Shown: positions 20,559 to 63,201 of the stretch, one piece after another
Layout: each line of letters starts with the position of its first letter
How positions within the stretch are numbered: position 1 is the first letter of the stretch
Made by a program: the position numbers and the translations under genes
DNA from: an uncultured virus (IMG/VR IMGVR_UViG_3300033149_003774)
Taxonomy: Duplodnaviria; Heunggongvirae; Uroviricota; Caudoviricetes
Length of the DNA: 64,000 bases
Virus record (IMG/VR): IMGVR_UViG_3300033149_003774
Strand: one strand, 5' to 3'
Notes under the pieces: model-generated
Seen by the model: the letters and a program-made list of their open reading frames with translations, nothing else
The model's database searches: none
What the model was told of the DNA's origin: nothing

Positions 20559-20642
20559 AAAGAACTTTAAATCAGGTGTAAATCCAAGAAAGAACGTGAT
20601 CACTTTCTTAGGACGTAGGATAGGGGAGGCGAGCTAAAGTTC

Positions 20643-28152: not shown

Positions 28153-28208
28153 AATTATCATATATCATACAATTTTTATACTTATAAAAGTTTTTATTTG
28201 ATGAAACT

Positions 28209-29261: not shown

Positions 29262-29282
29262 TTTTGATCCCCACATAAACCA

Positions 29283-29900: not shown

Positions 29901-29909
29901 TTCAATCTC

Positions 29910-30895: not shown

Positions 30896-30900
30896 TTTTG

Positions 30901-31626
30901 TTACACCCTCTTAAACATGAACCGTCTCAAACCGCCTTCTTCATTCCAGAAATGCTTACTAATATCTTCAAAATATGGCTCAAAATATGAAAAAAATTCT
31001 TGAAAATCAATACCACGATAAGGGTGAAATTCCCCCACAATACAGTCTATTTTTTTCAGGTTGTTTTGAGAGATACCGCGAAATGCACCAATCTCTCCCC
31101 CTTCGGCATCCGTCTTCAGAACCTTACATTTTTTAATATCGTATTTTTTGAAAATATCATCTAATGAAATTTTTCTTGCCCGATGAACCATCCCAGAACC
31201 TCCCAACATACTACCGATAAATTTATGTGTTTTTCCAAATTTTGTTGTGTCATCTGTATAGTAGATGGACTCCCATCCATTTGAATCGGAAGCAATGGCA
31301 CCCATAATCGGTGTTACATTTCCCAACCTATTCAGTTCAATATTTTTTAAAGCGAGTTTAAAGTTTTCTGGGAGGGGTTCTACACCATAGACAGCTGAAG
31401 TTGTTTCTAGCATTCCCATCAAAACCGTCCATGTGCCGATGTGCATCCCCAAGTCGATGAATACATCTCCATCTTCATAATTGTGATATCTTGCTTTATA
31501 TTCATCATATACCATTACTGAACTTATTACTCCACTATCGTTGGTATCGCGTCTAAAAGCCATGATAGCTTGTTTATTCCATATCGTAGGAATTCTTTTA
31601 TATACTACATCATACATTTTTTTCAC
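30901..31626 (-). CDS. FkbM-family methyltransferase
   Basis: IDLGMHIG, VEP, LKTDAEGGE, EFH. Confidence 0.85.
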   Translation of the reverse strand: MKKMYDVVYKRIPTIWNKQAIMAFRRDTNDSGVISSVMVYDEYKARYHNYEDGDVFIDLGMHIGTWTVLMGMLETTSAVYGVEPLPENFKLALKNIELNRLGNVTPIMGAIASDSNGWESIYYTDDTTKFGKTHKFIGSMLGGSGMVHRARKISLDDIFKKYDIKKCKVLKTDAEGGEIGAFRGISQNNLKKIDCIVGEFHPYRGIDFQEFFSYFEPYFEDISKHFWNEEGGLRRFMFKRV

Positions 31627-32855: not shown

Positions 32856-33845
32856 TTATTTCACCTCATTCACATAACGAAATCGTCCCCTTCTCCCCAA
32901 CATTCCAGACATCTTATTGAGAAAGTCTGCGACACCATTCCCGATAGCGCATGGAGAAGGGGAGGGAACTGGGGGACCATTATGAATCAACCAGAAATCA
33001 TATGGATAAAATGGATACTTTACTGGAAGGTAAAATAACCCCCCATCCCCTATCTCGCTACCCCAGCTATTCATATTCACAAAATATTCCTCCCCATCAA
33101 TCACCTTCCATCCAATGATGGCAGAGCTGTGACCGCCCAAGAGTTTATCATTTTCTTTTGGCATGGGTACAATTCCATCGTCGTAAGCCTCAGTATAACT
33201 TTGATATACCTGATAGGAGGAAACTAATGGAATCTTTCCTTGGGAACCATCTGGCATTTTGTATGGAAGTTCATGCGTCAGACCATATATTGCGGCTTTT
33301 ATGTCGTTTGGATTTGGATTGATATTCCAATAGGAATTGATTGCGTATTGTTTCGCCCTCTCCTCAGCCTCCTTCGTATATGTTATTCCATCCCACGGTT
33401 TTTTTGTATCTGTTGGAACGTCTTTTTCGAGAGCGGCTCCCTTATGCTTCATCGCCTTCATCAATCCTAAATTGGTGGACCCCTCAACATCTGGTGGAAT
33501 GTTGGCGTATTCTCTGGACCAATGATAGAGCCAACCAGCAGATAAGTCAATGATGACATATTTCAATAGTTCTGGTTGATTTGTTCTTTTTGCGTAGAGC
33601 TTCAAGAGGGTGCTAGAAATTGAGTCAACCTGATCTCCACACCACCCGCAACAACTCCCCACATCTCCCTGATCTGGCCACGGATCTGTTTTCGCATACT
33701 TCAAGAGTTCCTTATAATATTCCTTTGGAAGTTCTACAACCTCCTTTGGGGAAGCCTGTAAAACTCTATAGTGGCGGTAATCCCACGGTGAGGGAAATGC
33801 ACCAAGTCTATCTTTGAGGAATTTTACTCCTTTTCTTCGTACCAT
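32856..33845 (-). CDS. papain-like (C1) cysteine peptidase
   Basis: DQGDVGSCCGW, GGHS, NSWG...GDGG. Confidence 0.9.
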   Translation of the reverse strand: MVRRKGVKFLKDRLGAFPSPWDYRHYRVLQASPKEVVELPKEYYKELLKYAKTDPWPDQGDVGSCCGWCGDQVDSISSTLLKLYAKRTNQPELLKYVIIDLSAGWLYHWSREYANIPPDVEGSTNLGLMKAMKHKGAALEKDVPTDTKKPWDGITYTKEAEERAKQYAINSYWNINPNPNDIKAAIYGLTHELPYKMPDGSQGKIPLVSSYQVYQSYTEAYDDGIVPMPKENDKLLGGHSSAIIGWKVIDGEEYFVNMNSWGSEIGDGGLFYLPVKYPFYPYDFWLIHNGPPVPSPSPCAIGNGVADFLNKMSGMLGRRGRFRYVNEVK

Positions 33846-34281: not shown

Positions 34282-36282
34282 CTAAATCACCGCATATCTA
34301 CCCGTTTCTGGAGAATATACATCTGTACTTAGAGCATCGCTTCTTAAAAGTTTTTTCAATTCCTTCCTATCCATAAGACCGCTTACCGCCTCAGCAAGTT
34401 CATCAAAACTCAATCCAGTTCTTGGGAATTTTTCTAGTTCAGCAAGTATTGCTTGTTTCTTCTTTTCTTGTGTCAGCGGTTTTCCAGTTTCTATTATACC
34501 TATATCTATCTTTCCAGAACTTGGGTCATATCCCGCCGCTTCCAAACTACCCCTCAACAACTCTATAGCCAGTTCAGCATCTTCTTCATCAGCAATGGAT
34601 TTTAGAGCCATTCTCGCACTAGCTTCAGTCAATCGACGCAGACCCTCCCCCTGTCGTGCTGTAATGGGTATTGGGTTCTCTCCTATACCCCCAGACAATT
34701 TTCTCATTTCGATGTAGAAGTCAACTATTTTCTTTAGTGCCTCTTGGCTTATTTTCGGTTTTATTGTTTTAGAATATAATATGTATTTTTTCAGTAGTTT
34801 ATAATCCATCATCTTTTTTTCCTCGGCACTAAAATCAACATTAAGTATTTTTTCTATTAATTCACGATCCTTTTTCTCGTCTGGTTGATCTTTTATGATG
34901 AAGATGAGATCGAACCTTGAGAGGATTGTCGGAGGGAGTGAAATATTCTCTGTAAGAAATTTATATGGATCATATCTACCACCAGAAGGATTTGCGGCGG
35001 CTATGACTCCAGTTCGCGCATTTAAGGTCATATGTTTGTCAGCTTTATGGATGCTCACCGTTCCAGTAGACATCGCTTCATGTATTTTTGTTCTGTCCTT
35101 ATCATCCATTTTCTCAAGTTCATCAATAGCACACAAACCCCTATCCGCGAGAACCAACGGTCCAGCTTCCAATCTCCATCCATTCTGATCTTGTATTGCC
35201 GCCGCCGTAAGACCTACACCACTTGCTCCCCTTGCAACGGTATAGATGCACTTTGGCGCGGCGTTCGTCGCCGCAAGCAACATTCTAGTTTTTGCCATAG
35301 AAGGATCTCCAACCAAAAGAACGTTAATAGAACCTCTGTGTTTTATATCGCGTTTTTTATGTTCAACACCACCAAATATCGCTAAGGCAAGACCATATTT
35401 TTCCATTCTGTGTCCATGAATAGAAGGAAATATTGAGTCCACTATTATTTCCTTTATTCTTGGATTTGAAGACCAATACACTAATTCTTCTTTTTCCTCC
35501 TCAGACAACTTCTCATCTATGATGTTCTTGTTCAAAACTTCTATATTATTTGCTTCCAAGAACCAATCGAAGATCCGATCCCTTCCTCCCCGCCTCGGTA
35601 CGACAAAAAGAGAACACACAATGCGTACTAAATCGCCAGGTTTACATATATCAATGAGATGTTTTCCTATTAATTTTACCTTTATGATTCTCGGTACAAC
35701 TCCCATTTCTACTTCTTGTGGGTTCTCCTGTAACCATATTTCTTGATAATCATCCCATTCAGATTTATTTTCTTCTAATATGAATCCTCTTTTGTTTCCA
35801 CAGATACATTTCATTGGTTTTATTAATTCATTTGAGTTTTGATAAACAAAAAGATCCTCTTCGCATTTTGGACAATGGAAAAACGCCTTTGTCAATATTG
35901 AACGGGGAGAAGAACTACTCGTTACAACACCAGTAACAGTCATTAGAGTATTAATGTCGCTAGATGAAAGTTCTCTCACTTTTTTGTTGTTTTCGACGTT
36001 TTTCAGCCACACTCTGATCTTTTTTTCTGTTTTTTTACCCCCTCGTTTTTCAATTTCATTATTAGTTTTTGTTGTGATGAACTCGTCTATATTTCCCCTT
36101 CCGTGAAAAAAACGCGCGTAGTCCTCTTGAACTTTTTTTCCTGCTTCCTCACTCAAATCATCGAAATCAAGTAAAAAAACATTATGATCTTTCTCTAATA
36201 TTTTTTCAAAGCGTTCTCTGTATTTGTCTGTTTTTAATAATGCATCAAACTCATCCAAAAAAGTAGCGTCCAAACCACACAA
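34282..36282 (-). CDS. mcm: MCM replicative helicase
   Basis: Zn motif CPKC...C-C, GDPSMAKT, IDELEKM, AAANP, SRFD, ITARQ. Confidence 0.95.
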   Translation of the reverse strand: MCGLDATFLDEFDALLKTDKYRERFEKILEKDHNVFLLDFDDLSEEAGKKVQEDYARFFHGRGNIDEFITTKTNNEIEKRGGKKTEKKIRVWLKNVENNKKVRELSSSDINTLMTVTGVVTSSSSPRSILTKAFFHCPKCEEDLFVYQNSNELIKPMKCICGNKRGFILEENKSEWDDYQEIWLQENPQEVEMGVVPRIIKVKLIGKHLIDICKPGDLVRIVCSLFVVPRRGGRDRIFDWFLEANNIEVLNKNIIDEKLSEEEKEELVYWSSNPRIKEIIVDSIFPSIHGHRMEKYGLALAIFGGVEHKKRDIKHRGSINVLLVGDPSMAKTRMLLAATNAAPKCIYTVARGASGVGLTAAAIQDQNGWRLEAGPLVLADRGLCAIDELEKMDDKDRTKIHEAMSTGTVSIHKADKHMTLNARTGVIAAANPSGGRYDPYKFLTENISLPPTILSRFDLIFIIKDQPDEKKDRELIEKILNVDFSAEEKKMMDYKLLKKYILYSKTIKPKISQEALKKIVDFYIEMRKLSGGIGENPIPITARQGEGLRRLTEASARMALKSIADEEDAELAIELLRGSLEAAGYDPSSGKIDIGIIETGKPLTQEKKKQAILAELEKFPRTGLSFDELAEAVSGLMDRKELKKLLRSDALSTDVYSPETGRYAVI

Positions 36283-36900: not shown

Positions 36901-39900
36901 TTACACCGCCCCTTTATGTGCCTTTCTAAACTTCTCCATCTTCTCTTTCATACGAGCCTTCCTCTTCTCATTCTTTCTTTGATTTCGCAACTTCTGCTCC
37001 TCAAACCATGCTTCTTCTTCTTCTTTCGATTCAAACTCAGGTAGGGGATCTTCAAGTATGTCCTTATCAGCATCGCCCATTCTCACTGCCTTTACGATCC
37101 ATGAAAACTTGACATTACTTGTTCCGCCCATCTTTTCCTTAACTTCAAATCCATTAAATTCCTTTCTGGAAACATATAATCCGTTACAATCATCCTCTTC
37201 TTGAAGAACAACTGCATAATCGAGATCTTCCATTAGTGAACAAAACTCTTCGCTAAACTCAACAAATGTTACTCCTTTTGTTAAGCTACTAACTCCCCAG
37301 TCTTCTACTGTGACTTTTGGACCTTCCACACATGTGAATATAATGTGCTTTTCGGGGTTGTGTAATGGATGACGGAACGCGGCATTTTTGTTATCAGCAT
37401 AGAAATACCCCCATTTAACCGTACTCGTTCCCAAGTACCCCGTTCCTGTTCCTTTCAAAGGTTTCACATATGTGGAGAAAACATAATTTGAATGAGTCAT
37501 ATACCAATACCGATCTGACTCTCCAATATATCCATAGTCAGAAGAAGCTGGTAAGAGAGCCCAGTCACTAAGCGTTGGGAAGAATTTTACTGCTGGTGTA
37601 TCACGTGTTGTTCCAGAAGCCTGCTTGAATGTCATCAGTTTATATGATGATGTTCCCGCGTAAATATCACCATTATTAGCCATATAGATATCTGTGGGAT
37701 AGAAAGTATCAGCATAGACTCTCTGGAACGGAGTGGCAGACGATCCAATGTCCTGTGTGGCTCCAATTGGTATCATGCCCGATCCATAGAATATTGTCCA
37801 TCCAGTAGCGTCTAGGACAATATCATCTCCTGCTATGAGAATAATATCATCAGTATCAGCATTAAGAACTACATCTGCTCCACCATAGACGAGGCTAGTA
37901 TTGCCCGCAGGAGCATAGATAATGGTATCCTTTCCTGATGTGGCTGCCAACGCCACACCAGAATAGCCACTAGATGCTAGATCTTTCACATATCCCTGTA
38001 GAACAGCATTGCTATCTTGAATGAGAAGGTATGCACCCCTAATAGTTATTCCATTCGCATCTAAAATAACATTTCCTCCACCAGCCTTTGCTTTTCCACT
38101 GGAGGCTAAGAGATAAAATTGCGCTTCATCTGAGTTATTATAACCATAGATACCATTCGTGTCGAACTCTACTCTTTGACCAGAAGATGCGGTTCTGAAC
38201 TTCTTTGCTTCAATCCACTCACTCGCTGTAATATGTTTTGAAAGAATGGCATAGGCTCCAATTACACCAGCCCCAATCGTGGGTGTATAGGAACCGAACA
38301 ATATTATTGTTGGTGCTTCTGAGGAAGCACTATTGATGTCAACAATGCCAAATAATCCCTTTCCAGAACCAACTGCATCTGTATATGTTTGACTCCATTG
38401 CAGATCATAATTACCACCAGTTTTTTGTGATTTATCCCAGTATATATACCACGTTCCATCGGCAACGTCCGTATTTTCGCCATAGTTGATTTGATCTGTT
38501 GTCCCATCCGCAAATTTTATATCGGCATTTGTGGCATTCTCTGCCCCAGGTGCGCCCCACTTGATATGATTAAAATCTGTGGGGGGATCATCGTTCACAT
38601 CATCCCACACAACACTCAGGTTGGACTGCCAAGGACGCAGTTCAATCTTAAGATCTGCCGCCTCGGCTCTACTTGGAGCCGCAGAACCCTCTGTAGCAGA
38701 ATAATCTGAAACATTACCCGACCAATCAACCGCCTTAATTCTATAATAATATGTTGTTCCATAGTTCACATTTCCGTCCAATAGATAATTTGTATATGTC
38801 CTTGCATATTCTGATGAGGCGGGGCTAGATGTTCCCCTATACACTATATAATAATTCAAGTCTTTTTCAGTATTCGCATCCCATATAACTCGTACAGCAC
38901 TCAACTCAGAGGAAGCACTGACATTAGTTGGTGCGGAAGGGGGACCAGGTGGATCATCAACGATACCATGTGGAACAATTCCGATCCAATCACAGTAAAA
39001 ATCCGTGATACCAGATGCAAAATTGTTTGCCCTAAATTCAACATCTGAATATGTGGCATCGAGGGTGAATGAGAAAGCAATCACTTCCCATGTATCAGAT
39101 GCATTAAATTCATTTGGTTTCATGGTACGGGATGCGAACGCGCTTCCCTTTGTGGCACTATACACGTCCAGAGTAACCAAGTTGCTTGAACTTGAATTAT
39201 CCGTTACTTTACAAAGAAAGAGAACTCTGTAGTCGCCTCTTGTTAATGTTACAGCTGGTCCCCACCATATGACACCGGATTGTGCAGAAGCCATTTTTAC
39301 GATCTTTTCGTTAGAGGCATTAGAATCATCCTCAATTGTGGCATCTGGATCAAGAATCATATGTTCTGCTTCATAAAATAGTGAAAAACCAGTTTGATCC
39401 GTAATGTAGTTTGGTCCAACATCTGAGTATGTTGCCCCCCGTTCACCTCTTATTTGGTTTATTATTGAGGAAATAACATCTTCCACATACTTTTTTTTCA
39501 GAGTACAACCGACAACTACCGTTTCCCCGTCGGCTTTATACGTTCTTTTTATTGTTTTTACTTTGTATGAACCAGAGAGTCCAGTAACGGAGTCCGTTAG
39601 CGTAATCGTATCCCCCACGCCCCACGTACCTGTACTGTATGTATCGTCCACCGTTACCAAGACTTCTTCTGGTGAACTATATTCTTCCAAGATCGCTTCA
39701 GCTCTCAGTCTGCACGCCTCGGCAGTTTCAAGTGTCTTGTCAACGATTACGGATTCGTAGTCTCCAGAACCAACCCAACCGCTAGAGTTCCTATCCTGTT
39801 CATCACCGGTTCCCGCACCGAGAACCAATACCGCATCAACTTTCTGGCGATTGTCTGTCTTGCTTGAACTCTGAATGATGGTATCTATATCATTTTGATA

Positions 39901-41178
39901 TACGAATCCAACAGAACCGCTCTTATCACTCCCGATTCGTGGACCCATATTAACGGCTCCAGCATCGGTTACTTCCCACTCCCACGGGACGTTATCTGTC
40001 GTGCATAACTTTACAATTTTATCTATGGCATCAGAGCGTCTCATATATTCATGGTTTATCTCGGTAAATCTGCTTATATTAGTAACAAAACCATTAGCCG
40101 CCACAGTATAATTCGCACCGAGGTTGGTGGTAAGAGTGAGAGTATCACCAGAAATGCTGGCGATCTTGCACACCCGCCGCCCATCTATTGTATTTGTTTC
40201 CTCACCATTATCATCACCCACCACAACATAATCACCAGTACTGAAACGCCAGCTTTCCTTTACAACTATATCTGGTTGTCCAGAGGCGGCATCGGAAGCC
40301 ATAAGACTGCTATTGAGTGGTAAGTGTTCCGTTAAAGTTCCAGCAGAGATTCCACTTATCGTTCCCCTAGCTTCATATACATATATTTCTCCAATTGACC
40401 AATGATCTGCAAATGCCGCCGTACATGTTATCCTGATGTATCGTGTGGATGCCGCGTCCCACGATTCTACTATATTTATGGCTCTATTGTTTGTTTTTGA
40501 GGCGACTAACACTTCCTCGCCAGTCCATGCACCGGTCGTGCTGGTTTCTATCTTATAGTTTCGTATGTATTGTTCCGGTGTCCCAGTTCTGTGGTTCTCA
40601 ATCCTTATACCACAAATGTTTTTTGAAGATCCCAAATCTATCTGAAAATACTGTCCGTTTGTCTGATCATTAGCTGAACTCCAAGAATACGCCGTTGGGA
40701 GACGTTTAATGGCATTTTTTGCGAGACTGTCATTCTCAGAAGCGGATACAGTCCAATTAGTTGGATCAAGACCCCATCCAACTCTTCGTCTTGAGTGTGA
40801 TTCAACGGGTCTGTCTGACGTTGATGGGTGAAGCAAAAATTCAACTATTTTGTTGGGATAGTAAGCCGTCCAATAACCACGTTGATCAGCACACCTATCC
40901 GTCCATTTTCTCCACAGTTTCACTCCGACGTGTCTTCCAGAAATTTTTTTGTGGGAAAACATAGGACCCATAGATGGTTCTATGGATTCCACTATTCCAG
41001 TAAAAATACTGGTTCCATCTCGTTTTATGACTACTGAATCACCAGCAGAAACGCTCTCGCTTGGGTCTTTAAGGGTCACACTATATGTATGAATATTTTT
41101 TCCTTCGCTATCCCATTTTATGCTTAACTCTAGGAACTCTCTCGTTGAACCATCCACTTCTACGGTATAAGATGTCAT
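36901..41178 (-). CDS. large tail tip/hub-fibre protein
   Basis: 1425 aa; hub-like N-terminus, discoidin/F5-8C-like segment (YFQIDLG...WSIGEIYVY), FnIII (YYYRIKAVDWSGNVS), C-terminal chaperone-like region. Confidence 0.8.
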   Translation of the reverse strand: MTSYTVEVDGSTREFLELSIKWDSEGKNIHTYSVTLKDPSESVSAGDSVVIKRDGTSIFTGIVESIEPSMGPMFSHKKISGRHVGVKLWRKWTDRCADQRGYWTAYYPNKIVEFLLHPSTSDRPVESHSRRRVGWGLDPTNWTVSASENDSLAKNAIKRLPTAYSWSSANDQTNGQYFQIDLGSSKNICGIRIENHRTGTPEQYIRNYKIETSTTGAWTGEEVLVASKTNNRAINIVESWDAASTRYIRITCTAAFADHWSIGEIYVYEARGTISGISAGTLTEHLPLNSSLMASDAASGQPDIVVKESWRFSTGDYVVVGDDNGEETNTIDGRRVCKIASISGDTLTLTTNLGANYTVAANGFVTNISRFTEINHEYMRRSDAIDKIVKLCTTDNVPWEWEVTDAGAVNMGPRIGSDKSGSVGFVYQNDIDTIIQSSSKTDNRQKVDAVLVLGAGTGDEQDRNSSGWVGSGDYESVIVDKTLETAEACRLRAEAILEEYSSPEEVLVTVDDTYSTGTWGVGDTITLTDSVTGLSGSYKVKTIKRTYKADGETVVVGCTLKKKYVEDVISSIINQIRGERGATYSDVGPNYITDQTGFSLFYEAEHMILDPDATIEDDSNASNEKIVKMASAQSGVIWWGPAVTLTRGDYRVLFLCKVTDNSSSSNLVTLDVYSATKGSAFASRTMKPNEFNASDTWEVIAFSFTLDATYSDVEFRANNFASGITDFYCDWIGIVPHGIVDDPPGPPSAPTNVSASSELSAVRVIWDANTEKDLNYYIVYRGTSSPASSEYARTYTNYLLDGNVNYGTTYYYRIKAVDWSGNVSDYSATEGSAAPSRAEAADLKIELRPWQSNLSVVWDDVNDDPPTDFNHIKWGAPGAENATNADIKFADGTTDQINYGENTDVADGTWYIYWDKSQKTGGNYDLQWSQTYTDAVGSGKGLFGIVDINSASSEAPTIILFGSYTPTIGAGVIGAYAILSKHITASEWIEAKKFRTASSGQRVEFDTNGIYGYNNSDEAQFYLLASSGKAKAGGGNVILDANGITIRGAYLLIQDSNAVLQGYVKDLASSGYSGVALAATSGKDTIIYAPAGNTSLVYGGADVVLNADTDDIILIAGDDIVLDATGWTIFYGSGMIPIGATQDIGSSATPFQRVYADTFYPTDIYMANNGDIYAGTSSYKLMTFKQASGTTRDTPAVKFFPTLSDWALLPASSDYGYIGESDRYWYMTHSNYVFSTYVKPLKGTGTGYLGTSTVKWGYFYADNKNAAFRHPLHNPEKHIIFTCVEGPKVTVEDWGVSSLTKGVTFVEFSEEFCSLMEDLDYAVVLQEEDDCNGLYVSRKEFNGFEVKEKMGGTSNVKFSWIVKAVRMGDADKDILEDPLPEFESKEEEEAWFEEQKLRNQRKNEKRKARMKEKMEKFRKAHKGAV

Positions 41179-42115: not shown

Positions 42116-42625
42116 TTATCCAGTAGAGACTGGTAGTTCAACCTTCCACATAGAAGGTGCGGGCGGTTGATCTTTAGACCATTCTTTGGATGCCCAATCA
42201 GCGAGTTTTTTCAGAATCATATCCTGTTCACCTTTTAATGACAATATTGCCCTATCCAAGAATGGGTTTGGGGGATTATGTGCCGTACCATCATGAACGG
42301 CACGTGCATAATCCACTTCTTTTTTGTGTTTTGGGTTTATCACACCACCACCACCTGCGAATATATAGTATTCACTCATAGGGTTTGTTCTTCCCACCAC
42401 ATATTGTCCCATCGTATTTCTCCCCTTCTTTATTCTAATGGAAGCTCTGAGTGCGCCCGTGTCAACGGGACAGAAACGCACCGCCGCAGAATATACCTTT
42501 TGCCAATATCTAAAAATAATACGATCAAATACAGCGGGTGCTTCCCTATTTATTTGCTTCAGTTTCTTTATGGTGACACCCTTTGTTCCAAAGTCCGTTT
42601 CTCTTACACTAACATGTTGTCTCAT
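42116..42625 (-). CDS. HK97 gp10-like tail completion protein
   Basis: CPVDTGALRASI, YARAVHDGT, PPNPFL. Confidence 0.85.
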   Translation of the reverse strand: MRQHVSVRETDFGTKGVTIKKLKQINREAPAVFDRIIFRYWQKVYSAAVRFCPVDTGALRASIRIKKGRNTMGQYVVGRTNPMSEYYIFAGGGGVINPKHKKEVDYARAVHDGTAHNPPNPFLDRAILSLKGEQDMILKKLADWASKEWSKDQPPAPSMWKVELPVSTG

Positions 42626-45910: not shown

Positions 45911-47731
45911 TTACCGTTCTTCTACCTTGAAATGTCTGCGCTCACCAAACTCGTGACGCTTCCCTTTATTCCAATTATGAACCTCGGAGAAATACCCAGT
46001 CACTCTGCTCCATACCTCACACTCAGAACCACATATGGGACACTTCCACACTTCACCAGACATCACTCCATGTTTAGGGCAAATACTCGTGGTGGGAGAA
46101 TATGTTATGTATGGGAGCGGTGTATTCTCGATAATTCGTCTCAGCAGTTTAGACACTCCTTCCCACGGTGGACGTGCCTCATTTCCCCATATATGAAAAA
46201 CAGTTCCTCCAGTATATAATGGTTGAATTTGACTTTGGTGTTCTAAGACGAAACCAAATGGATCGCTTGTTGAAACTGGAAGATAAGTGCTATTCGTATA
46301 ATAAGGTGAATCTTTTTCACCTGCCGTTATGATGTCGGGAAACTCTTTTTTATCCTCCATAGCAAGTCTATAAGCCGTCCCTTCTGCTGGCGTTGCTTCA
46401 AGGTTATACATATTTTCAGTTTCATCTTGAAATTCAATCAACTTCTCTCTCATATGTTTCATAACGCGTAATGTGAACTTCAAGCCAGCAGAAGAAGCAA
46501 TACCCTCTCCAAGAAGATTCCTGCAAGCCTCATCCATACCTATCAAACCGATGGTATTAAAATGGTTCTTCCAATATCCACCAAACCTTTCATATATTGA
46601 CTGAAGATATATCTTACTATATGGATATTGTCCAGCCAGCGTCCACTCTTCCAATTTTTCCCGTTTCAATTCAAGAGAATCACTAGCCAACTCCATAGCA
46701 GTATCGAGAAGAGACAGAAATTCATCTTCATCTCTCGTGAGATACGCGATTAGCGGTAAATTCATCGTACACACGCCCACACTTCCTGTGAGGGGGTTCG
46801 CTCCGAAGAACCCACCACCTCTCTTTTTCAACTCACGCGAATTTATCCGCAGACGACAACACATACTACGTACATCCTCTGGATCTAAATCACTATTCAC
46901 AAAATTGGCAAAATACGGCGCACCACGAAGAGCAACCGCCCTGAACAAAACCCCATCATTCCAGTCAAAATCATTTGTGACGTTTAGCGTTTCAATGGGA
47001 AAGGGCTGCGGGCGTCCCTTCGCATCTCCCTCCATACGACACTCCCACCACGCTTCATTGAATATATCCATCTCATCCTGAAAATCACCATATACATCAT
47101 CAGAATATTTACCGCCAATTATTACTGGACTTTCTCTCATAATTTTTGGCACTTTTTGATCTAGTGTTATGTTAGTGAATGCTGCCTGTCCTCCAATTCT
47201 GGTGCGAACATTCATATTATAAATGAATTCCTGTAGTGCTTGTTTTACTTCTTCTTTTGTTAAACCATCCGCGGCTATGAACGGTGCAAGATAAGTATCA
47301 AAATCGTTTAATGCCTCCGCACCATCAGCCTCTCCCTGAAGAGTAAATAAAAAATTAACGGCTTGACCCAACGCAACTCCAAAGTGTTTTGGAGGCGCAC
47401 TCGTCTGCGTTCCAAATCCCCCCTTAAATCCAGTCCTCAAAATATCTTCGGTATTCCATCCAACACAATACGTTGTTCCTGCACCAAGATTATGGATATG
47501 AAAAAGTCTCCGTTTGAAGGCATTACGTATTTTCTCAGTATAGACTTTTTCAAGCCAATATTGAGACCACGCCGCTCTTGATATTGCCATATTTAACGCC
47601 ATATTTGAACGGGCAATATTGGCGTTTTCCTTCATCCACCACGGATCGCGGTAGAGATAGTCATCTATGATTTTATTCGTATCCAACAATTTTGAAATCC
47701 CTTCGACGCTACCTATAATGGATGCGCCCAT
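45911..47731 (-). CDS. nrdD: anaerobic (class III) ribonucleoside-triphosphate reductase
   Basis: YCVGW, SMCCRL, EATPAEG, CPKHG...CPICG, SRVTGY glycyl-radical loop. Confidence 0.95.
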   Translation of the reverse strand: MGASIIGSVEGISKLLDTNKIIDDYLYRDPWWMKENANIARSNMALNMAISRAAWSQYWLEKVYTEKIRNAFKRRLFHIHNLGAGTTYCVGWNTEDILRTGFKGGFGTQTSAPPKHFGVALGQAVNFLFTLQGEADGAEALNDFDTYLAPFIAADGLTKEEVKQALQEFIYNMNVRTRIGGQAAFTNITLDQKVPKIMRESPVIIGGKYSDDVYGDFQDEMDIFNEAWWECRMEGDAKGRPQPFPIETLNVTNDFDWNDGVLFRAVALRGAPYFANFVNSDLDPEDVRSMCCRLRINSRELKKRGGGFFGANPLTGSVGVCTMNLPLIAYLTRDEDEFLSLLDTAMELASDSLELKREKLEEWTLAGQYPYSKIYLQSIYERFGGYWKNHFNTIGLIGMDEACRNLLGEGIASSAGLKFTLRVMKHMREKLIEFQDETENMYNLEATPAEGTAYRLAMEDKKEFPDIITAGEKDSPYYTNSTYLPVSTSDPFGFVLEHQSQIQPLYTGGTVFHIWGNEARPPWEGVSKLLRRIIENTPLPYITYSPTTSICPKHGVMSGEVWKCPICGSECEVWSRVTGYFSEVHNWNKGKRHEFGERRHFKVEER

Positions 47732-49786: not shown

Positions 49787-49909
49787 TCAATAAAATATAT
49801 GTATAAAACACCATATAAATCTTGTGTTTGATTCTTGTAATAGTAACAAAAAATAGAAAATTTGGAAACATTTAAATATACCAATAGGCTTTATTCAAAG
49901 CGAAGAAAA

Positions 49910-50498: not shown

Positions 50499-51002
50499 GT
50501 GGTAAAAACGATGGTTCTTTTAGATGCGACCGCCGGAAACAGAATGATGTGGAAAAACAAGAACCCACCACTAACGGTTTTTATGGATAAAAACGCCCTT
50601 TCGCCAAGACCTCCAGACGTTGTTGGAGTATGGGAATTTCTCCCATTTAGAGATGATGTTTTTGAATGTGTGATCTTTGATCCACCACACAAACACGGAC
50701 GAACTACGGGACGTGGATTGTGGGCTACTCCGACCAGCTCTTCATATTATGGTATCGATATACCAAGGATAAAATTTCTCAGCGGCGTTTATAGAGGAAC
50801 GCGGGAATTTCTTAGGGTTTCCAAGAGACTTTGTTTCAAATGGAATGACATTGAAATGAGTGTATCGCGCGTTCTTTCTCTTTTTCCAAAGGAGTGGAAG
50901 GAAGTCTACAGGCGCGTGATAGATAAGGGATTAAAGACCAAAACTCTGACGTTCTGGATAACCTTCGTGCGGTCAAAACATTTAAATACTTCTTCGTATT
51001 AG
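50499..51002 (+). CDS. small DNA amino-methyltransferase
   Basis: LDATAGNRMMW, IFDPPH, FKWND. Confidence 0.8.
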   Translation: MVKTMVLLDATAGNRMMWKNKNPPLTVFMDKNALSPRPPDVVGVWEFLPFRDDVFECVIFDPPHKHGRTTGRGLWATPTSSSYYGIDIPRIKFLSGVYRGTREFLRVSKRLCFKWNDIEMSVSRVLSLFPKEWKEVYRRVIDKGLKTKTLTFWITFVRSKHLNTSSY

Positions 51003-52877: not shown

Positions 52878-54491
52878 TTACCATATGCTTATTGTTTTAT
52901 TTGATATTTCTGGAAGGATATTAATGACATCAGGTTCATAGTCTATCATACTATAGATGAGGGAATCGAATGAGTGATCGTTGTGCTTGAGTATATTTCC
53001 GCTGGAGTCATAAGATAGTTCCGAGAGCGAATTAATAAGGAATGTAAATTTCTTTGGAATGAATAATTTATGTTGTTCTATAAAACGCTTTGTTTTTTGG
53101 ACATAGTAGTGTTTTTTCACTCCCCCTCCCAATTTCCAAATGTGTGGTGTGGAATAACCCTTATCTTCTAGGATTTGAAGCATCATTCTTTCTTCAGGAT
53201 CAGCAAATACGATCCATACGTGATATTGTTTTAGTTTTTCTTCTACCCAATTAAGAACCTCTTCCGAACGTAGTCCAACCCTTTCATCGCTATACAAAAC
53301 ATAGATTATACCTTCCCGTTCCCCAGGCACAGTCATAGCGTTGGGCGCAACATCTCCAAAATCTATACCCACTCTTCTGTTGCCTATCATACTAAGTTCC
53401 AGTCCCTTCTTTTTCATCATAGGACAATATTCTGTATAAGGTCTGCACTCATCACACGGTTTGCCATTTTCGGTCCATTTTGAGCCATCACAAATGCAAG
53501 CCGCCAAGTCCTCTCGACTAAATACCAAGCCAGTACCTTTGGAGATTCCACCGAGAATTTCTACGAGCCATTGATCATCAGAACTTCTCTTGCGCAGGTT
53601 CTTTATGTTTTCTGTAGTCTCCCACCAGACATTACTTATCCAATGTTCTGGATTTTTATCCTTATATAAGACAGTATCCACGTAGTCCCAATTTGGTGTT
53701 TTTCCATCCTCCAAGAACCATTTTGGGCTTATATGTCTAGCCATACTCCATCTATAACGTTTATATCCTAGTTTTTTGTAATTCTTCCACATCTTTATGA
53801 ATATTCCAGTCGCCAACTGAGCAGTACTGATGTATCCTAAGATGGGATCAGGAGAACTCGTAGTTTGGTATGCCGCCGCCTCTATCGCCGCCGCACCCTC
53901 CTTGCTTTTTCCCTCTCCAGAACACACCTCATCTATATGAACTTCTCTTACATGTGGACTTCGCGCTCCCGTTTGACTGCAAGCCGGAAAGTAGACTATT
54001 GATCCCCATTTGGATTCTATATGTGGAGGTTCTTTTGTGCTTTCAACAGAACGTGAAACACAACGATTGATCTCATCAACCTGATTACGCCAGAAATCTA
54101 TGTAGCGTTTACACTTCATGTTTTGTGAGGAGGAGCCGCCCATAATGGTCATAGTCCAATAATCAAAACAGCACATACGCCAACAGGCATAGATGGCTAG
54201 AACGTAGGTCTTCCCAGCACCTCTTGCGGCGAGTAAGACATATCCAGCGAAGCCGCGCTTCCACAGGTCATTCAAAAATGTTTTTTGTCCCTCTGAAAGA
54301 ACGTTGAACTCTGGAATTCTACCAAGATCTGGATGCATTGGATTTTCTGGCCAACATGGAAGAACCTCTTGGGCAAATCTTACTGGACCAGCTTCTCTCC
54401 AGTATGCGCGCCACTTCTCTATTTCCTCTTCTGGATCTTTCTTTTTGCGCTTTCTTTTGACCTTCCGAAGTTTTTTATATCCAAGCGACAT
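52878..54491 (-). CDS. terL: terminase large subunit
   Basis: AARGAGKT, VHIDEV, IST coupling motif, GIDFG, ADPE, NDHSFDSLIY. Confidence 0.9.
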   Translation of the reverse strand: MSLGYKKLRKVKRKRKKKDPEEEIEKWRAYWREAGPVRFAQEVLPCWPENPMHPDLGRIPEFNVLSEGQKTFLNDLWKRGFAGYVLLAARGAGKTYVLAIYACWRMCCFDYWTMTIMGGSSSQNMKCKRYIDFWRNQVDEINRCVSRSVESTKEPPHIESKWGSIVYFPACSQTGARSPHVREVHIDEVCSGEGKSKEGAAAIEAAAYQTTSSPDPILGYISTAQLATGIFIKMWKNYKKLGYKRYRWSMARHISPKWFLEDGKTPNWDYVDTVLYKDKNPEHWISNVWWETTENIKNLRKRSSDDQWLVEILGGISKGTGLVFSREDLAACICDGSKWTENGKPCDECRPYTEYCPMMKKKGLELSMIGNRRVGIDFGDVAPNAMTVPGEREGIIYVLYSDERVGLRSEEVLNWVEEKLKQYHVWIVFADPEERMMLQILEDKGYSTPHIWKLGGGVKKHYYVQKTKRFIEQHKLFIPKKFTFLINSLSELSYDSSGNILKHNDHSFDSLIYSMIDYEPDVINILPEISNKTISIW

Positions 54492-55631: not shown

Positions 55632-55837
55632 ACTCTATCACCATTTTATATACAGTTCGGACTAAATAAATCTTGTGTTTGTTGAACATTTTTATCAGTT
55701 CAAAAGGTTTAAATATTGCGCCTTGGCTATATCTGGGTGGTTTAGGAAATGGAGAGAATTTATACGGTTGGTTTTTTTACCACTCCCAATCTATGTCAGA
55801 TAGAGAAAAATAATGATTGTATATCAGAGGTGTAATT

Positions 55838-57136
55838 ATGAGTCTCCCTACCAACAAAATTATCTGCGGGGACTGTGTAGATGTAATGCGAACCTTTCCT
55901 GCTGACAGTATAGACTGTGTTGTTACATCTCCTCCCTATTGGGGACTCCGTGATTATGGGACGGAAACAATCCGAGTGTGGGGAGGTAATTCAGATTGTG
56001 AACATGAGTGGGGAATAGAAGTTCCCAAGGGTGGCAGAACAAAAAGACCACAAGATTATGATCCCAAATTCGCAAGAGGAATTAGAAGCGAAGAAACGAA
56101 TTCATTTCGTAACAATCCACGTAATTTTTGTATCAAATGTGGGGCTTGGCGTGGACAGCTAGGACAGGAACCACATCCAGAGATGTATATTAATCATTTA
56201 GTTCTGATTTTTCGCGAAGTTAAACGGGTATTGAAGCCGACGGGAACATTCTGGTTAAACCTCGGAGATACCTATTTTGGTGGGAAGGGGAAAAGTGGAT
56301 ATGAGTTACCATATGAAGTAGAGGAAAGACGAAGAAAGAGGAAAACGCTCCAAAGAAGCTATAATGTCCCAGGCTTTATGGTAGGTCGTCCTCAAGATAT
56401 GGCACCTCAAGATGGTGCGTGGCTTCAGCCTAAGCAGCTTCTAGGAATCCCTTGGCGGGTGACCGCCGCGCTTCAAGAAGATGGCTGGATACTTCGTAAC
56501 GCTATCGTATGGCACAAGCCTAATCACATGCCCTCAAGTGTGAAGGATAGGCTGACAAACGCATACGAGTTCGTATTTCTTTTCGCCAAACAGAGACGGT
56601 ATTGGTTTGATTTAGACGCGATTAGAGTTCCCCATCAAACAAACCCATTTCAGATGGAGTATAGAAAACGACTTTGGGCATCTCGCGGAAAGGACATTTT
56701 GTATCAATTCAATAAAGAAAAAAGGCTTGCAGATGGTCCCAATACTGGTGCGAGAAATAAAGCACCTTATAAGGTGAACAATCCACACATCTCCAGAATC
56801 ACGAAGGGGAGGGAAGCTGGAAATATAAAAGGAAAAAATCCTGGGGATGTTTGGACCATTCCCACCACAGCATTTTCTGGTGCGCATTTTGCCACCTTTC
56901 CACCTAAACTCATCACGCTTATTATAAAAGCTGGCTGTGTGCGCGATGGCGTGGTTCTCGATCCCTTTGGCGGAAGTGGAACTGTTGGTTTTGTTGCTCG
57001 GCGGTTGAATCGTCGTTTTATCCTTATTGATATAAAACCTGAATATTGTGAAATGGCACGAAGACGTGTTCGCGGTTTTACAAAAAACATACCGGAAAAT
57101 GTTATTCCACTAGATATTTTATTAAACAGAAAGTGA
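55838..57136 (+). CDS. DNA amino-methyltransferase (likely N4-cytosine, beta class)
   Basis: TSPPYWG, HFATFP, DPFGGSGT. Confidence 0.9.
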   Translation: MSLPTNKIICGDCVDVMRTFPADSIDCVVTSPPYWGLRDYGTETIRVWGGNSDCEHEWGIEVPKGGRTKRPQDYDPKFARGIRSEETNSFRNNPRNFCIKCGAWRGQLGQEPHPEMYINHLVLIFREVKRVLKPTGTFWLNLGDTYFGGKGKSGYELPYEVEERRRKRKTLQRSYNVPGFMVGRPQDMAPQDGAWLQPKQLLGIPWRVTAALQEDGWILRNAIVWHKPNHMPSSVKDRLTNAYEFVFLFAKQRRYWFDLDAIRVPHQTNPFQMEYRKRLWASRGKDILYQFNKEKRLADGPNTGARNKAPYKVNNPHISRITKGREAGNIKGKNPGDVWTIPTTAFSGAHFATFPPKLITLIIKAGCVRDGVVLDPFGGSGTVGFVARRLNRRFILIDIKPEYCEMARRRVRGFTKNIPENVIPLDILLNRK

Positions 57137-57145
57137 TGATTTGAA

Positions 57146-57928
57146 ATGGTGAAATTGCCAATTAATAAAATAATTTCTGGGGATTGCATCGATATTATGG
57201 TTGAGTGGCCAGAGAGAAGCGTTGATCTCATATTGACTGATCCACCGTATAATATATCTTCTGATTCAAAGGTTACGAAATCGTTTGGAAGGATGCTTTC
57301 AACAAAAGAAGTATGGGGTGATAAGTTTAAAGATGATTATTCTGAAAAGGAATATTTGCTTTTTATGGAAGACTTAGCGAGGACATTCGATAGAGTTCTG
57401 AAGGATGATGGGTCCATTCTAATGTTTTTTGATAGGGGAAAACCATATTATCTAATACCATTTTATAGACGATTCTTTTTCAGAAATATGATCGCATTTA
57501 TAAAAAGGAATCCTGTTCCGCATACGCGGAAGAACAACTACAGGAGTGGGTTCGAGTTGTGTGCTTGGTTCAGTCGCCAAAAATATAAGATAAATTTTAT
57601 AAATCAACAAAAAATGATAAATGTATTTTACGGGGTTATCGGTAGATCGTCTTCTGGTGATTCGCTTCTTCGTTCAAAAAATCTCAGGAGAACAGAACAT
57701 CCAACGGAAAAATATGAGTGGATGATCTCCCCTCTAATAGAAAGACACTCAAACGAAGGTGATTTGGTGGTAGATCCTATGTGTGGAAGTGGAACAGTTC
57801 CCTACTGCGCAAAAAGGTTACGTAGAAACTATATTGGTATTGATATTAAACCTGAGTGGTGTGAGGTTTCTCGAAGACGACTTGATTTTATTACACCAAC
57901 CCCTCTCGACCGATATGTTTTTATATGA
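57146..57928 (+). CDS. DNA amino-methyltransferase (likely N6-adenine, beta class)
   Basis: TDPPYN, HPTEK, DPMCGSGT. Confidence 0.9.
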   Translation: MVKLPINKIISGDCIDIMVEWPERSVDLILTDPPYNISSDSKVTKSFGRMLSTKEVWGDKFKDDYSEKEYLLFMEDLARTFDRVLKDDGSILMFFDRGKPYYLIPFYRRFFFRNMIAFIKRNPVPHTRKNNYRSGFELCAWFSRQKYKINFINQQKMINVFYGVIGRSSSGDSLLRSKNLRRTEHPTEKYEWMISPLIERHSNEGDLVVDPMCGSGTVPYCAKRLRRNYIGIDIKPEWCEVSRRRLDFITPTPLDRYVFI

Positions 57929-60165: not shown

Positions 60166-60270
60166 AACAATTATGTTTTTTTGTTACATAGGAAAAGTGT
60201 CAGACAAATTATCTCTTTTATTTTCAATAAACTTTATAAGTATAAATTAATGTATATATATAGAAGAAAG

Positions 60271-61188
60271 ATGATAACAGTAGAAGAAACCCTAAAGTCA
60301 GCCGATCTACCTAGTGATGTAATTCCCCATTTGATATGGAAGGAAGTCCTCTTAGGCGCGCAGAAGAGACGAGTGTTCCTAGAGGGAGCGACTATAACAA
60401 ACCAGCTACAGGGCGATATGGGGACGAAGATTAGTGTTCCCTACCTCTCCACGAAGTTCACCGCCGCAACCATTTCAGAAAGTTCCCTCGATTCGAGCGG
60501 CTATACTGTTTCCGATCTTGCTGTATCTGATACGGATATAAGTGTAGGAAACCAAGTTTATGTTGCGTTCCGTCTTTCATATGTTCTAAGAGAAGATCAG
60601 CCTCGCTACGATTGGGTTCAGTTGGCCATTCGAGATGCTGGTCGTGCTGTGGCGGTCTATGAGGATGCCGCAGTAAGGGACGTTCTTCTCGCTGGTGCTG
60701 GAAATAGCCAAGCGGCAGGAACGGCGGGTACTCTAACATATGATGACATCATCAACACTCTAAGCCTTATGAAGGCTGATGGTTGGTTCCCAGACGATAT
60801 AAAACCACTTCTGTATATACACCCAGATCAGGAAGCAGACTTGCTCAAAGATACCACATATGTTAGCGCAACCACAAACAGGTACGCTGTCGGTAGTCTT
60901 CCAGAACTCCCTGGCGCAAACTATATGACACAGGCGGATACCGAAACGATCTATGCTGGTTGCAGAGTCAGGGTCACGGATAATATGACGAAGGCTCTCG
61001 CACTCATCGTATTCCCAGAACATCCACAGTTTGGACCAACTTACATCCACGCCATCAAGAGACCTTTGACTGTTAGAACCGATGACGAGGTACTCTATGG
61101 TAGGCAGTTATGGACGGTAAGCACCAGATACGGGACTGCGGTAATGAGCGGGAATGCGGACGGCGTGGGTCTTATAACCAATTGTTGA
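60271..61188 (+). CDS. major capsid protein (HK97 fold)
   Basis: VIPHLIWKEV, GTKISVP, LYIHPDQEADLL, IYAGCRVRVT, TRYG pattern. Confidence 0.8.
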   Translation: MITVEETLKSADLPSDVIPHLIWKEVLLGAQKRRVFLEGATITNQLQGDMGTKISVPYLSTKFTAATISESSLDSSGYTVSDLAVSDTDISVGNQVYVAFRLSYVLREDQPRYDWVQLAIRDAGRAVAVYEDAAVRDVLLAGAGNSQAAGTAGTLTYDDIINTLSLMKADGWFPDDIKPLLYIHPDQEADLLKDTTYVSATTNRYAVGSLPELPGANYMTQADTETIYAGCRVRVTDNMTKALALIVFPEHPQFGPTYIHAIKRPLTVRTDDEVLYGRQLWTVSTRYGTAVMSGNADGVGLITNC

Positions 61189-61287
61189 TTTAAATAAAAC
61201 TAAAACTAATAGAACAGTAGGGTTGGTAAGGAAGCCAACCACAAAAGACTTATATTTCCCCTTTTTTTATGTTATATATGAGAAAGA

Positions 61288-62115
61288 TTGCCTGATTATA
61301 TCGAAGAGTTGTTCTGTCCTAACTGTGGCTCTGAAGAGAAGAGAAGCAAAGGCAAGAATTGGCAATGTAAAAACTGCGGGCGTCATTGGGTTAAGAAGAG
61401 ATATATTGGTCCTAGGAGAAGGAAGAAAGACCATGTTCCGTGGAATAAGGGACTCACCAAGGAAACCAGCCCCATTATAGCCAAGGGAACCAAGAAGTCA
61501 AAGAAAACACGTCAAAAATTAATTGACGCTGGTATCATTAACCCAACTAAAAATCTTCCACCTAAAAAATATAATGTGTCTAAAGAAGAACTTTATGATC
61601 TTTATTGGAACAAAAATTTATCCACTTATAAAATTGCAAGAAAGATTGGCTGTCATCAAAGTTTAATATCCTTACTTCTAAAAAAGTATGGAATAAAAGC
61701 AAGAAATCGTGGCGTTGCTGGTGCTATGGCTCGTCGTTCAAAACAGCCTGAAATCAACAGGAAGATTTCAAGGGCGTTGAAGGGTAACACGAACTGGGTT
61801 TTTGGTGGCAACTTTCCTAATAAGGAAGAGAAGAAGATTATTACTTTTCTTGCGAGAAACAATCTTCCTTTTCGCTATGTTGGCGATGGTAGTTTTCTTA
61901 TCGGCGGAAAGAATCCAGATTTCATTTGTGAGGAGTCAAAAAAAGTTATAGAGTTTTTTGGGGAGCTTTGGCATCCCCCTTCTCATAGACGGAAGCGTGT
62001 AGAGTTTTTTGCTAGTTATGGATGGGATTGTTTTGTTATCTGGGGTAAAGATATGTCGTCAGTAGAGAAGAGAAAAATTCTTCTTCAGCGTCTTTTGGAA
62101 TGGTTTTCTAAGTAA
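61288..62115 (+). CDS. homing-type endonuclease (NUMOD/HTH plus Vsr-like PD-(D/E)xK domain)
   Basis: PWNKGLTKET, LSTYKIARKIGC, PDFI...VIEFFGELWH. Confidence 0.75.
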   Translation: MPDYIEELFCPNCGSEEKRSKGKNWQCKNCGRHWVKKRYIGPRRRKKDHVPWNKGLTKETSPIIAKGTKKSKKTRQKLIDAGIINPTKNLPPKKYNVSKEELYDLYWNKNLSTYKIARKIGCHQSLISLLLKKYGIKARNRGVAGAMARRSKQPEINRKISRALKGNTNWVFGGNFPNKEEKKIITFLARNNLPFRYVGDGSFLIGGKNPDFICEESKKVIEFFGELWHPPSHRRKRVEFFASYGWDCFVIWGKDMSSVEKRKILLQRLLEWFSK

Positions 62116-62164
62116 TCTTTTTGTATACCAAAACCTTTATATCCACCCCTTTTTTATATTATAT

Positions 62165-62368
62165 ATGAGAAAAATGTCATCTAGTGGTAAACGTGCTGGA
62201 CGCGGTTCACATGGAAGTCTCACAAAAGCCGGAAGGGTTCGTAGTACAACACCTCTAGTTCCACCTCAACCACATAGACCGCATCTTCACCCTCGTCTTG
62301 CCAATCGTCGCAAATATGTTCATAGAATTTTAAATCCACGATCTCGCAAACCTAGGCGGCGTCGTTAG
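62165..62368 (+). CDS. rps30e: ribosomal protein eS30 (S30e)
   Basis: SHGSLTKAGRVRSTTP...PRLANRRKY matches the eS30 signature HGSLxKAGKVRxQTP...PR..NR..Y. Confidence 0.9.
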   Translation: MRKMSSSGKRAGRGSHGSLTKAGRVRSTTPLVPPQPHRPHLHPRLANRRKYVHRILNPRSRKPRRRR

Positions 62369-62418
62369 TTTTTGTAGAAACAACACAAGATTTATTTGTG
62401 ATACTATCTATATGATAA

Positions 62419-63201
62419 GTGATCTTAATGCCGATTCTAACAGACGGAAGTTTGTACATTGACTACAAGAGAATAGCAGTTACCGATACGGAGCAAAGCT
62501 ATACAATTGGAACCCAATCTGGTACACCGTTTGGTTCCGAGAGGATACGTTTTTTGGCTGATGAGGATTGCTATGTCAGATTTAATGAACCCACAGCTCT
62601 GCAAATCCTTATCAAGGGAAAGGACATCTGGGAGTTTGAAAAAAGAGTTACAAAGATATATGTTGTGCGGGTTTCAGCGAATGGAAACTTGGAAGTGTGG
62701 GCGGAGGGGGATATCCCATCTGCGATCAAGGGGAGATATCGAGCAGTACTAGAGAGATTGGTTTTGTTGGTGGGTAATTCTCTTAACGAAGCTGACTACG
62801 ATGAGTATTATGTTACTGGGGACTATACACAACTGCCTACGAACCTGAGCAAGATGCCCTATGTAACGGTAAGAATTAATCCAGTTTTAATAGAGGATGA
62901 AACATATGGAAGGCGTCTTCCAAGTGTAGGAAGCATGGCAACACATTATTTCACTTTATATGTTTACGAAACGAGCAATACAGTTGCTAGTGAAAATAAG
63001 AATAGAGATGCACACATCTGTGCAAGAACAATAATGGACTTTTTACGTGGAAAAGATCAAGATTCGACAGAAGGAGAAACTTATGGAATATATAGAATAT
63101 ATGATATTGGTGCAAGAGAATCAGAACCAGAGGGATTAAGGGGGATAAGTAGAATGATTGTTACTGGTGCAATGTGGGTGAAGAGGTTGGATTCACCATG
63201 A
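62419..63201 (+). CDS. virion structural protein, tail-terminator-like C-terminal domain
   Basis: MPYVTV...FTLYVY pattern; paralogous to the next gene. Confidence 0.5.
   Translation: MILMPILTDGSLYIDYKRIAVTDTEQSYTIGTQSGTPFGSERIRFLADEDCYVRFNEPTALQILIKGKDIWEFEKRVTKIYVVRVSANGNLEVWAEGDIPSAIKGRYRAVLERLVLLVGNSLNEADYDEYYVTGDYTQLPTNLSKMPYVTVRINPVLIEDETYGRRLPSVGSMATHYFTLYVYETSNTVASENKNRDAHICARTIMDFLRGKDQDSTEGETYGIYRIYDIGARESEPEGLRGISRMIVTGAMWVKRLDSP

Follow-up and report, generated by a model that had tools for sequence, protein, structure and literature searches.

An archaeal tailed virus carries a gene for ribosomal protein eS30 whose product begins with a basic head

The open reading frame (ORF) at 62165..62368 (plus strand) of a 64-kb stretch of uncultured viral DNA (the window, at its full length) is a virus-encoded gene for the ribosomal protein eS30, and the window is DNA of an archaeal tailed virus. 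We hold with moderate confidence that this is a variant eS30 gene of a tailed virus infecting an anaerobic TACK archaeon, that it is intact, putatively expressed and under selection, and that its protein acts at the eS30 site of the host ribosome. The protein begins with a basic head, which was found only on viral or virus-like contigs among the sequences searched. In the ribosome, eS30 takes the form of an extended peptide bound to rRNA; together with two other small-subunit proteins it connects the ribosomes of TACK and Asgard archaea with those of eukaryotes.

The 67-residue product was assigned from the ORF listing, Pfam PF04758, NCBIfam NF006817 and the PDB chain 9fhl_e. The search against Pfam Ribosomal_S30 that the initial annotation had proposed gave a match to PF04758 of 34.8 bits (E 2e-8), above the curated gathering score of 27, in an alignment of residues 16-64 with positions 3-50 of the 58 in the profile. 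The match to NCBIfam NF006817 (30S ribosomal protein S30e) reached 54.8 bits (E 5.9e-15); this score fell below the equivalog cut-off of 75, indicating that the viral protein is a divergent homologue and not a standard cellular equivalog. When the protein was searched against the PDB, 62 distinct eS30 chains were recovered at E<=1. The best of these was the S. solfataricus eS30 chain 9fhl_e (E 3.5e-9; query residues 15-65 against chain residues 3-52), which belongs to the S. solfataricus 30S structure described by Bourgeois et al. (2025, PMC11698992). The eS30 signature read earlier from the sequence alone was thus borne out by all three resources. The protein is laid out as a basic N-terminal extension of about 13 residues, an HGSLTKAGRVR block, a PR..NRRKY..RIL block and an Arg-rich C-terminal tail, and it contains both signature blocks of eS30 (H-G-S-x-T-K-A-G-[KR]-V-R and P-R-x-x-N-R-x-x-Y). 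In a 36-sequence alignment, H16, G17, K21, G23, V25, R26, T29, P30 and P43 were invariant or at least 90% conserved, and the window protein has every one of them. The N-terminal extension and the Arg-rich tail had both been noted at the outset and are real features of the protein: the residue that pairs with residue 3 of 9fhl_e is preceded by residues 1-13 or 14, which hence lie ahead of the cellular eS30 counterpart; 15 residues precede the HG; and five of the final six residues are Arg. An alternative in-frame ATG at 62174 would give a 64-residue product.

The viral origin of the gene, which had also been claimed, is supported by its company on the same 64 kb. The window holds genes for a large terminase (52878-54491, minus strand; PHROG 2 at 6.6e-18), an HK97-type major capsid protein (60181..61188, plus strand; 31.3 bits to Phage_capsid_4, cut-off 27, and 2.8e-6 to the PHROG major head protein) and a tail-completion protein (42116-42625). 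Genes for an MCM helicase (34282-36282; 3.7e-76 to Pfam MCM) and an anaerobic ribonucleotide reductase, NrdD (45911-47731), are present as well, as are those for five DNA methylases, a sugar-modification cluster and several homing endonucleases of the HNH/NUMOD3 kind. With the MCM as query, 19 GenBank archaeal-virus records were matched at 25-38% identity. The eS30 gene stands alone, outside any cellular gene cluster; no tRNA genes were found in the 64-kb window, and no other ribosomal protein family, eS26 included, appeared in a Pfam scan of 108 window ORFs. Coding density was 85% under table 11, and the stop codons of 49 genes comprised 22 TAA, 17 TGA and 10 TAG. With all three stops in use, recoding in the window was rejected, and the suggestion in the initial annotation that recoded viral mRNAs might be favoured found no support.

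The eS30 gene has a TATA-like box and a T-tract of its own, as had been reported. The box, a TTTATAT heptamer at 62136..62142 (plus strand; position -29), is centred about 26 nt 5' of the A of the start codon (ATG, 62165), as would be expected if the archaeal mRNA is leaderless. A T5 tract at 62369..62373 (plus strand), directly 3' of the TAG stop, is a candidate archaeal oligo-T terminator; oligo-T tracts end archaeal transcription. Across the window, a TATA-like heptamer starting at -40 to -20 preceded 10 of 50 predicted genes compared with 4.6% of 2000 random positions, and a Shine-Dalgarno (SD)-like pentamer preceded 11 of the 50 compared with 7.6% of random positions; from these counts the virus seems to employ both modes of initiation.

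The flanks of the gene carry two further elements. A 47-nt direct repeat (family D1; copies 81% identical, spacing 887 nt) has its downstream copy at 62129..62175 (plus strand), spanning the eS30 promoter and first codons, and its upstream copy at 61242..61288 (plus strand), ahead of a homing-endonuclease ORF. This HNH/NUMOD3-type gene (61288..62115, plus strand; Pfam NUMOD3 E 3.9e-4, PHROG HNH endonuclease families 1.2e-8 and 7.5e-8) lies between the two copies. Because the repeat that includes the eS30 promoter brackets the endonuclease ORF, the insertion looks to have taken a copy of the promoter along, and the sequence suggests that the endonuclease gene is probably a later arrival between the capsid gene and eS30. 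On the other side, a promoter-like 13-mer, ACACAAGATTTAT, occupies 62383..62395 (plus strand), beginning 15 nt past the eS30 stop and ahead of the next gene. Two more exact copies occur in the window, at 49815-49827 and 55666-55678 (both minus strand); each of the three stands about 25-35 nt ahead of a gene start, and three copies were reached in none of 100 shuffles. The 13-mer is a candidate shared, possibly late, promoter element of the virus. The ORF downstream of it (62419..63201, plus strand; 260 residues) had no match in Pfam or PHROG; in an Atlas structure search its residues ~105-256 aligned to phage tail/neck terminator clusters (TM by row 0.62-0.73), a structural lead to a possible neck/tail-terminator protein. 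The earlier description of eS30 as lying among virion genes is therefore sound for the upstream side, where the capsid gene is found, though with the homing-endonuclease gene intervening; for the downstream side it depends on a gene whose neck or tail identity is a structural lead only.

Relatives of the viral protein were found in several collections. A word-indexed protein search returned two, and an exhaustive search of 1.84 billion representatives returned 42 at E<=1e-3, many of which have an N-terminal head ending in G-[RK]-G-[ST] before HGS; the long-form proteins from the database search sit on contigs of 0.6-13.5 kb. The top match of the exhaustive search (P0003, 1327 residues, 21 stretches) was discarded as spurious, being a translated tandem repeat of about 61 residues that aligned only at PPxPHRPH. 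The survey of viral databases advocated in the initial annotation was run on IMG/VR with the eS30 alignment; 15 of the 35 matched stretches were confirmed, on 14 contigs of 18-156 kb that encode 10 distinct eS30 proteins, one of them identical across five records (L001-L005). No ribosomal gene cluster was detected near these genes with Pfam (69 ORFs at five loci) or PHROG (108 ORFs at eight loci). The neighbourhood of eS30 holds a collagen-like tail fibre and a homing endonuclease in L001 and a terminase in L009; RNA ligases, ribonucleotide reductases, methylases and HNH endonucleases were found near others, and L010 and L014 had no viral hallmark gene within the flanks examined. When the 20-kb flanks of the 14 loci were compared with the window, only methylases, an epimerase and NrdD were in common. 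This limited gene sharing indicates that eS30 occurs in several different viruses.

A metagenome scan yielded the closest relatives of the window eS30. Three of its 95 matched stretches were confirmed, one on a 28.8-kb contig (L095) and two encoding the same protein (L096 and L097, the latter on a 55-kb contig). The eS30 proteins of the window, L095 and L097 all contain GKRAGRGSHG.LTKAGRVR.TTP. The L095 and L097 contigs also share with the window an RlaP nucleotidyltransferase (60% identity), a C5 methylase (59%) and a phosphoesterase (49%), in a different gene order; eS30 follows the phosphoesterase gene in L097 and lies amid genes of unknown function in L095. Single-protein scans of IMG/VR with the window eS30, capsid and terminase gave no usable locus, and tblastn against GenBank phage records returned nothing for eS30 or the capsid.

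The head distinguishes the viral protein from the cellular copies sampled. A scan of GTDB species genomes matched at least 600 stretches, of which 440 were confirmed and the best 80 examined; 76 of these 80 loci were titled as TACK or Asgard, and the other four were titled just 'uncultured archaeon'. All 80 proteins start M-P/A/G-(G)-[ST]-HGS. Among the 78 distinct cellular sequences they comprise (best 80 of 440 confirmed, two start codons corrected), HG was preceded by 3-5 residues and in none by more than five. The window protein, with its 15 residues, departs from this N-terminus. Of 13 viral or virus-like copies (the window, the ten from IMG/VR, L095 and L097), nine had 9-25 residues before HG and four were canonical. 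The head of the window protein reads into the core as GKRAGRGSHGS, and like heads occur in L001-L005, L009, L095 and L097. A DNA pattern for G-x-G-[ST]-H-G-[ST]-x-[ST]-K-[AG]-G matched once in the window and in none of 100 shuffles; among 97 loci it matched L001-L005 and L009 only, as a pattern that describes one head subtype and in its narrow form misses L095 and L097. It was absent from 401 sampled Thermoproteota genomes, and a slightly wider form was absent from 121 sampled Asgard genomes.

The four canonical copies (L007, L008, L012 and L013) are on viral contigs, and their eS30 has the ordinary cellular N-terminus (MP[ST]HGS). With the other loci long, both forms of eS30 appear to circulate in archaeal viruses. 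L013 additionally carries an NrdD 55% identical to that of the window, and its eS30 groups with Bathyarchaeia copies.

Codon comparisons pointed to selection on the head as well as on the core. Over a stretch of 25 codons that takes in the last seven residues of the head, the window and L097 had 23 of 25 residues identical, 20 of them by different codons, with 34 of 75 nt differing; for the window and L095, 21 of 25 residues were identical, 16 by different codons, with 29 of 75 nt differing. dN/dS was ~0.04 between L097 and L095 over 25 codons, and both pairs that include the window were saturated at synonymous sites; the stretch is short and these figures are rough. The retention of head residues through different codons indicates purifying selection on the viral copy, with the head maintained as protein.

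The phylogeny against archaeal eS30 that had been proposed placed the window core on the TACK side. In a 129-row, 53-column tree, the long forms did not make up one clade (13 changes); L095 and L097 paired at 99 SH-aLRT inside a mostly long-form group, and the window core fell with canonical copies in a 52-row Thermoproteota set (SH-aLRT 95), with L095 and L097 elsewhere. The nearest copy to the window core was a Thermocladium eS30 at 62% identity. In a tree of the window with 78 cellular rows, the TACK/Asgard split was a single weakly supported branch (50/67), with the window on its TACK side. Constraining the window with 26 Asgard rows changed the log-likelihood by -52.3 units (p-AU 0.00025), in a test where the window sits on a long branch, the columns are few and the group was named after the tree had been seen. 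With that reading of the value, an Asgard placement of the core was rejected, and the core appears from these trees to group with TACK (Thermoproteota).

A viral eS30 gene marks the host as belonging to an eS30-bearing lineage. The initial annotation had stated that eS30 occurs in eukaryotes and in TACK and Asgard archaea and had assigned the virus to a TACK or Asgard host. The first statement agrees with the distribution that Bourgeois et al. (2025, PMC11698992) give, and with the titles of the best 80 cellular loci; the second can be narrowed by the constraint test to the TACK (Thermoproteota) side. NrdD is an anaerobic enzyme, suggesting an anaerobic host. Other genes were less informative: the window MCM matched 300 of 301 Thermoproteota genomes at ~36-45% identity and so says nothing of the host, and the window NrdD was ~30% identical in five named genomes and did not narrow it.

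Published structures suggest where the viral protein would act. In the S. solfataricus 30S subunit, eS30 lies in the mRNA entry channel and touches h16; Pro2 of archaeal eS30, a position held by Pro in most sequences, packs on h44 beside the A site; and in the N-terminal tail of eukaryotic eS30 a conserved His touches the A-site codon-anticodon pair, with further contacts to eEF2 and eIF1A (as described in PMC11698992). The viral protein keeps the His and the rRNA-binding blocks and core of eS30, and with this core retained its most likely binding place on the small subunit of the host would be that of eS30, against h16 in the mRNA entry channel, whether it joins subunits as they are made or is exchanged into existing ones. 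The head of ~13 basic residues is added at the point where the N-terminus of cellular eS30 packs on h44 next to the A site, and from there it would extend into, or alongside, the region of decoding and initiation factors. Ribosomes marked in this way by the virus would be altered in initiation or decoding. We infer the incorporation into host ribosomes, the position of the head and the effect on translation from the retained core and the position of the N-terminus; the viral eS30 probably alters host ribosomes close to their decoding site, in line with the remodelling put forward in the initial annotation. That leaderless mRNAs are favoured, as was also put forward there, is possible.

The same N-terminal position can be read in other ways. 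In human cells, uncleaved FUBI, a 74-residue domain, on eS30 blocks late 40S maturation and keeps the protein off polysomes (PMC8354635), so an addition at the N-terminus may inhibit rather than tune. The viral protein could accordingly be a dominant-negative or shut-off factor that takes the eS30 site on new or existing host small subunits and, with its head, obstructs the A site, the binding of aIF1A or the late maturation of subunits, such that host translation or ribosome production is shut down. The dominant-negative effect of uncleaved FUBI-eS30 on human 40S maturation (PMC8354635) and the start of the head at the very residue packed next to the A site both speak for this. We nevertheless regard it as unlikely, since these ribosomes must also make the late proteins of the virus, the gene belongs to the late region, a stage that calls for heavy translation, and a flexible head of 13 residues is much smaller than a folded domain of 74. 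A related reading, which we rate as quite unlikely, takes the glycine-flanked head (G-R-G before the normal start) as a viral counterpart of the FUBI pro-domain, which might be cut off at a set time or kept in the aIF1A/A-site region, with the marked ribosomes favouring leaderless late messages. If it were true, N-terminal pieces on eS30 that control the small subunit would have arisen independently in archaeal viruses and in animals. The protein is also tiny and very rich in Arg and Lys, its gene sits in a structural module between the capsid gene and the likely neck gene, and the late-type promoter motif ACACAAGATTTAT adjoins it, all of which would suit an eS30 turned into a small and extremely basic protein of the virion, or one that condenses the genome, made along with the structural proteins, packaged with the DNA and no longer active on ribosomes. 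That we consider markedly improbable: selection has kept the rRNA-binding blocks and the adjacent head, not mere positive charge, and the position in the structural module is not conserved, as the different settings of the gene in L097 and L095 show.

Two further explanations deny the gene a viral role altogether. Viruses pick up host genes at random, and a Thermoproteota eS30 shares 62% identity with the core, as might be expected of a recently captured host passenger. Against this very unlikely case, none of the cellular copies sampled has the head, the protein is conserved relative to L095 and L097 while synonymous sites are saturated, the gene has promoter-like and terminator-like signals of its own, and ten distinct eS30 genes occur across 14 IMG/VR contigs. 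Misassembled or contaminating host DNA within the viral contig, which the initial annotation had named as one of two findings that would overturn its reading, is extremely unlikely. The GC content of the eS30 gene (47%) does exceed that of the window (33-46% per 2-kb bin), but the share of Arg, Gly and Pro in eS30 accounts for this. Viral genes lie within 50-100 nt on either side, no long-headed eS30 was found in a cellular genome among those sampled, and the nearby copy of the recurring ACACAAGATTTAT motif and the duplication of the eS30 promoter ahead of the adjacent viral homing endonuclease tie the flanks of the gene to the virus, which argues against a chimeric assembly. We retain the reading of a selected viral eS30 that would act on the host ribosome.

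Virus-borne ribosomal proteins are known mainly from phages (bS21 and bL12) and recently from giant viruses (eL40). The phage proteins bS21 and bL12 become part of E. coli ribosomes (Mizuno et al., 2019, PMC6375957). The viral eS30 resembles these cases as a lone gene for a small ribosomal protein in a tailed virus, with purifying selection and a presumed replacement of the host copy; it differs in that bS21 and bL12 are bacterial proteins in phages, with incorporation demonstrated in E. coli. As far as the available text of Mizuno et al. (2019, PMC6375957) goes, eS30 is listed only from a mouse retrovirus and the predicted hosts of the metagenomic cases are all bacteria, with no further eS30 case among the matches listed from its supplements; a 2024 paper describes the retroviral eS30 sequence as antisense and untranslated (PMC11499249). 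In archaeal viruses, L21e was the sole ribosomal protein known before bL19, according to a preprint by Duan et al. (2023, PMC10541130), the text of which has no occurrence of eS30. Like L21e and bL19, the present case is a ribosomal protein gene in an archaeal tailed virus. A 2026 survey of 3708 archaeal viral genomes (PMC13465236) has no word starting with 'ribosom' in its main text as available, and a full-text literature search, with subscription journals outside its scope, turned up no account of an archaeal virus that encodes eS30. The window eS30 is a further case of virus-encoded ribosomal proteins, apparently one unpublished for archaeal viruses.

Compared with cellular archaeal eS30 (9FHL chain e), the viral protein shares the HGSLTKAG(K/R)VR and PR..NR..Y..R blocks and has a similar size and charge, but it carries ~13 extra basic residues before the Pro2 position, scores under the NF006817 cut-off and is encoded by a gene alone, outside any cellular gene cluster. 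It resembles FUBI-eS30 (FAU) of animals in having an N-terminal addition with a glycine-rich junction right before the mature N-terminus, at the decoding site. FUBI, however, is a folded ubiquitin-like domain of 74 residues that is removed by USP36 (van den Heuvel et al., 2021, PMC8354635), whereas the viral head has ~13 residues, no sequence relation to FUBI and no sign of cleavage. With its sole systematic change at the N-terminus, the viral eS30 would be a natural experiment on the role of that tail in archaeal translation.

Several other genes of the window and its relatives deserve mention. An RlaP-type nucleotidyltransferase, of an RNA-repair pathway, is encoded at 3796-4602 of the window, at 1352-2194 of L095 and at 3632-4441 of L097 (60% and 28% identity to that of the window), and RNA ligases lie near eS30 in L007 and L009; the viral eS30 may be linked to RNA repair or translation maintenance. 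A second terminase-large-subunit-like ORF (1489-2349, plus strand; 286 residues) matched only the C-terminal part of PHROG 2666 (8.6e-10) and may represent a fragment, an additional nuclease or a piece of a different element. The five DNA methyltransferase genes (19137-21977, 50499-51002 and 55817-57928), comprising one C5, three N6/N4 and one recognised by PHROG only, suggest a heavy investment in anti-restriction. In a minus-strand cluster at 27241-31626, the gene for a nucleotide-sugar epimerase is grouped with those for three SAM methyltransferases and a kinase-like AAA_28 protein, and comparable epimerase/glycosyltransferase clusters adjoin eS30 in the IMG/VR loci L006, L008 and L011. A ThiF/E1-like protein (7055-7747), an overlapping 84-residue zinc-ribbon ORF (7729-7983), a weak match to a papain-family protease (32856-33845) and a dual-specificity phosphatase (25102-25698) might serve in protein modification; that they have any part in processing the eS30 head is purely speculative. 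Beside the tail genes, a 1425-residue protein (36901-41178, minus strand) with an F5/8 type C (discoidin) domain near its N-terminus is likely a tail fibre or receptor-binding protein.
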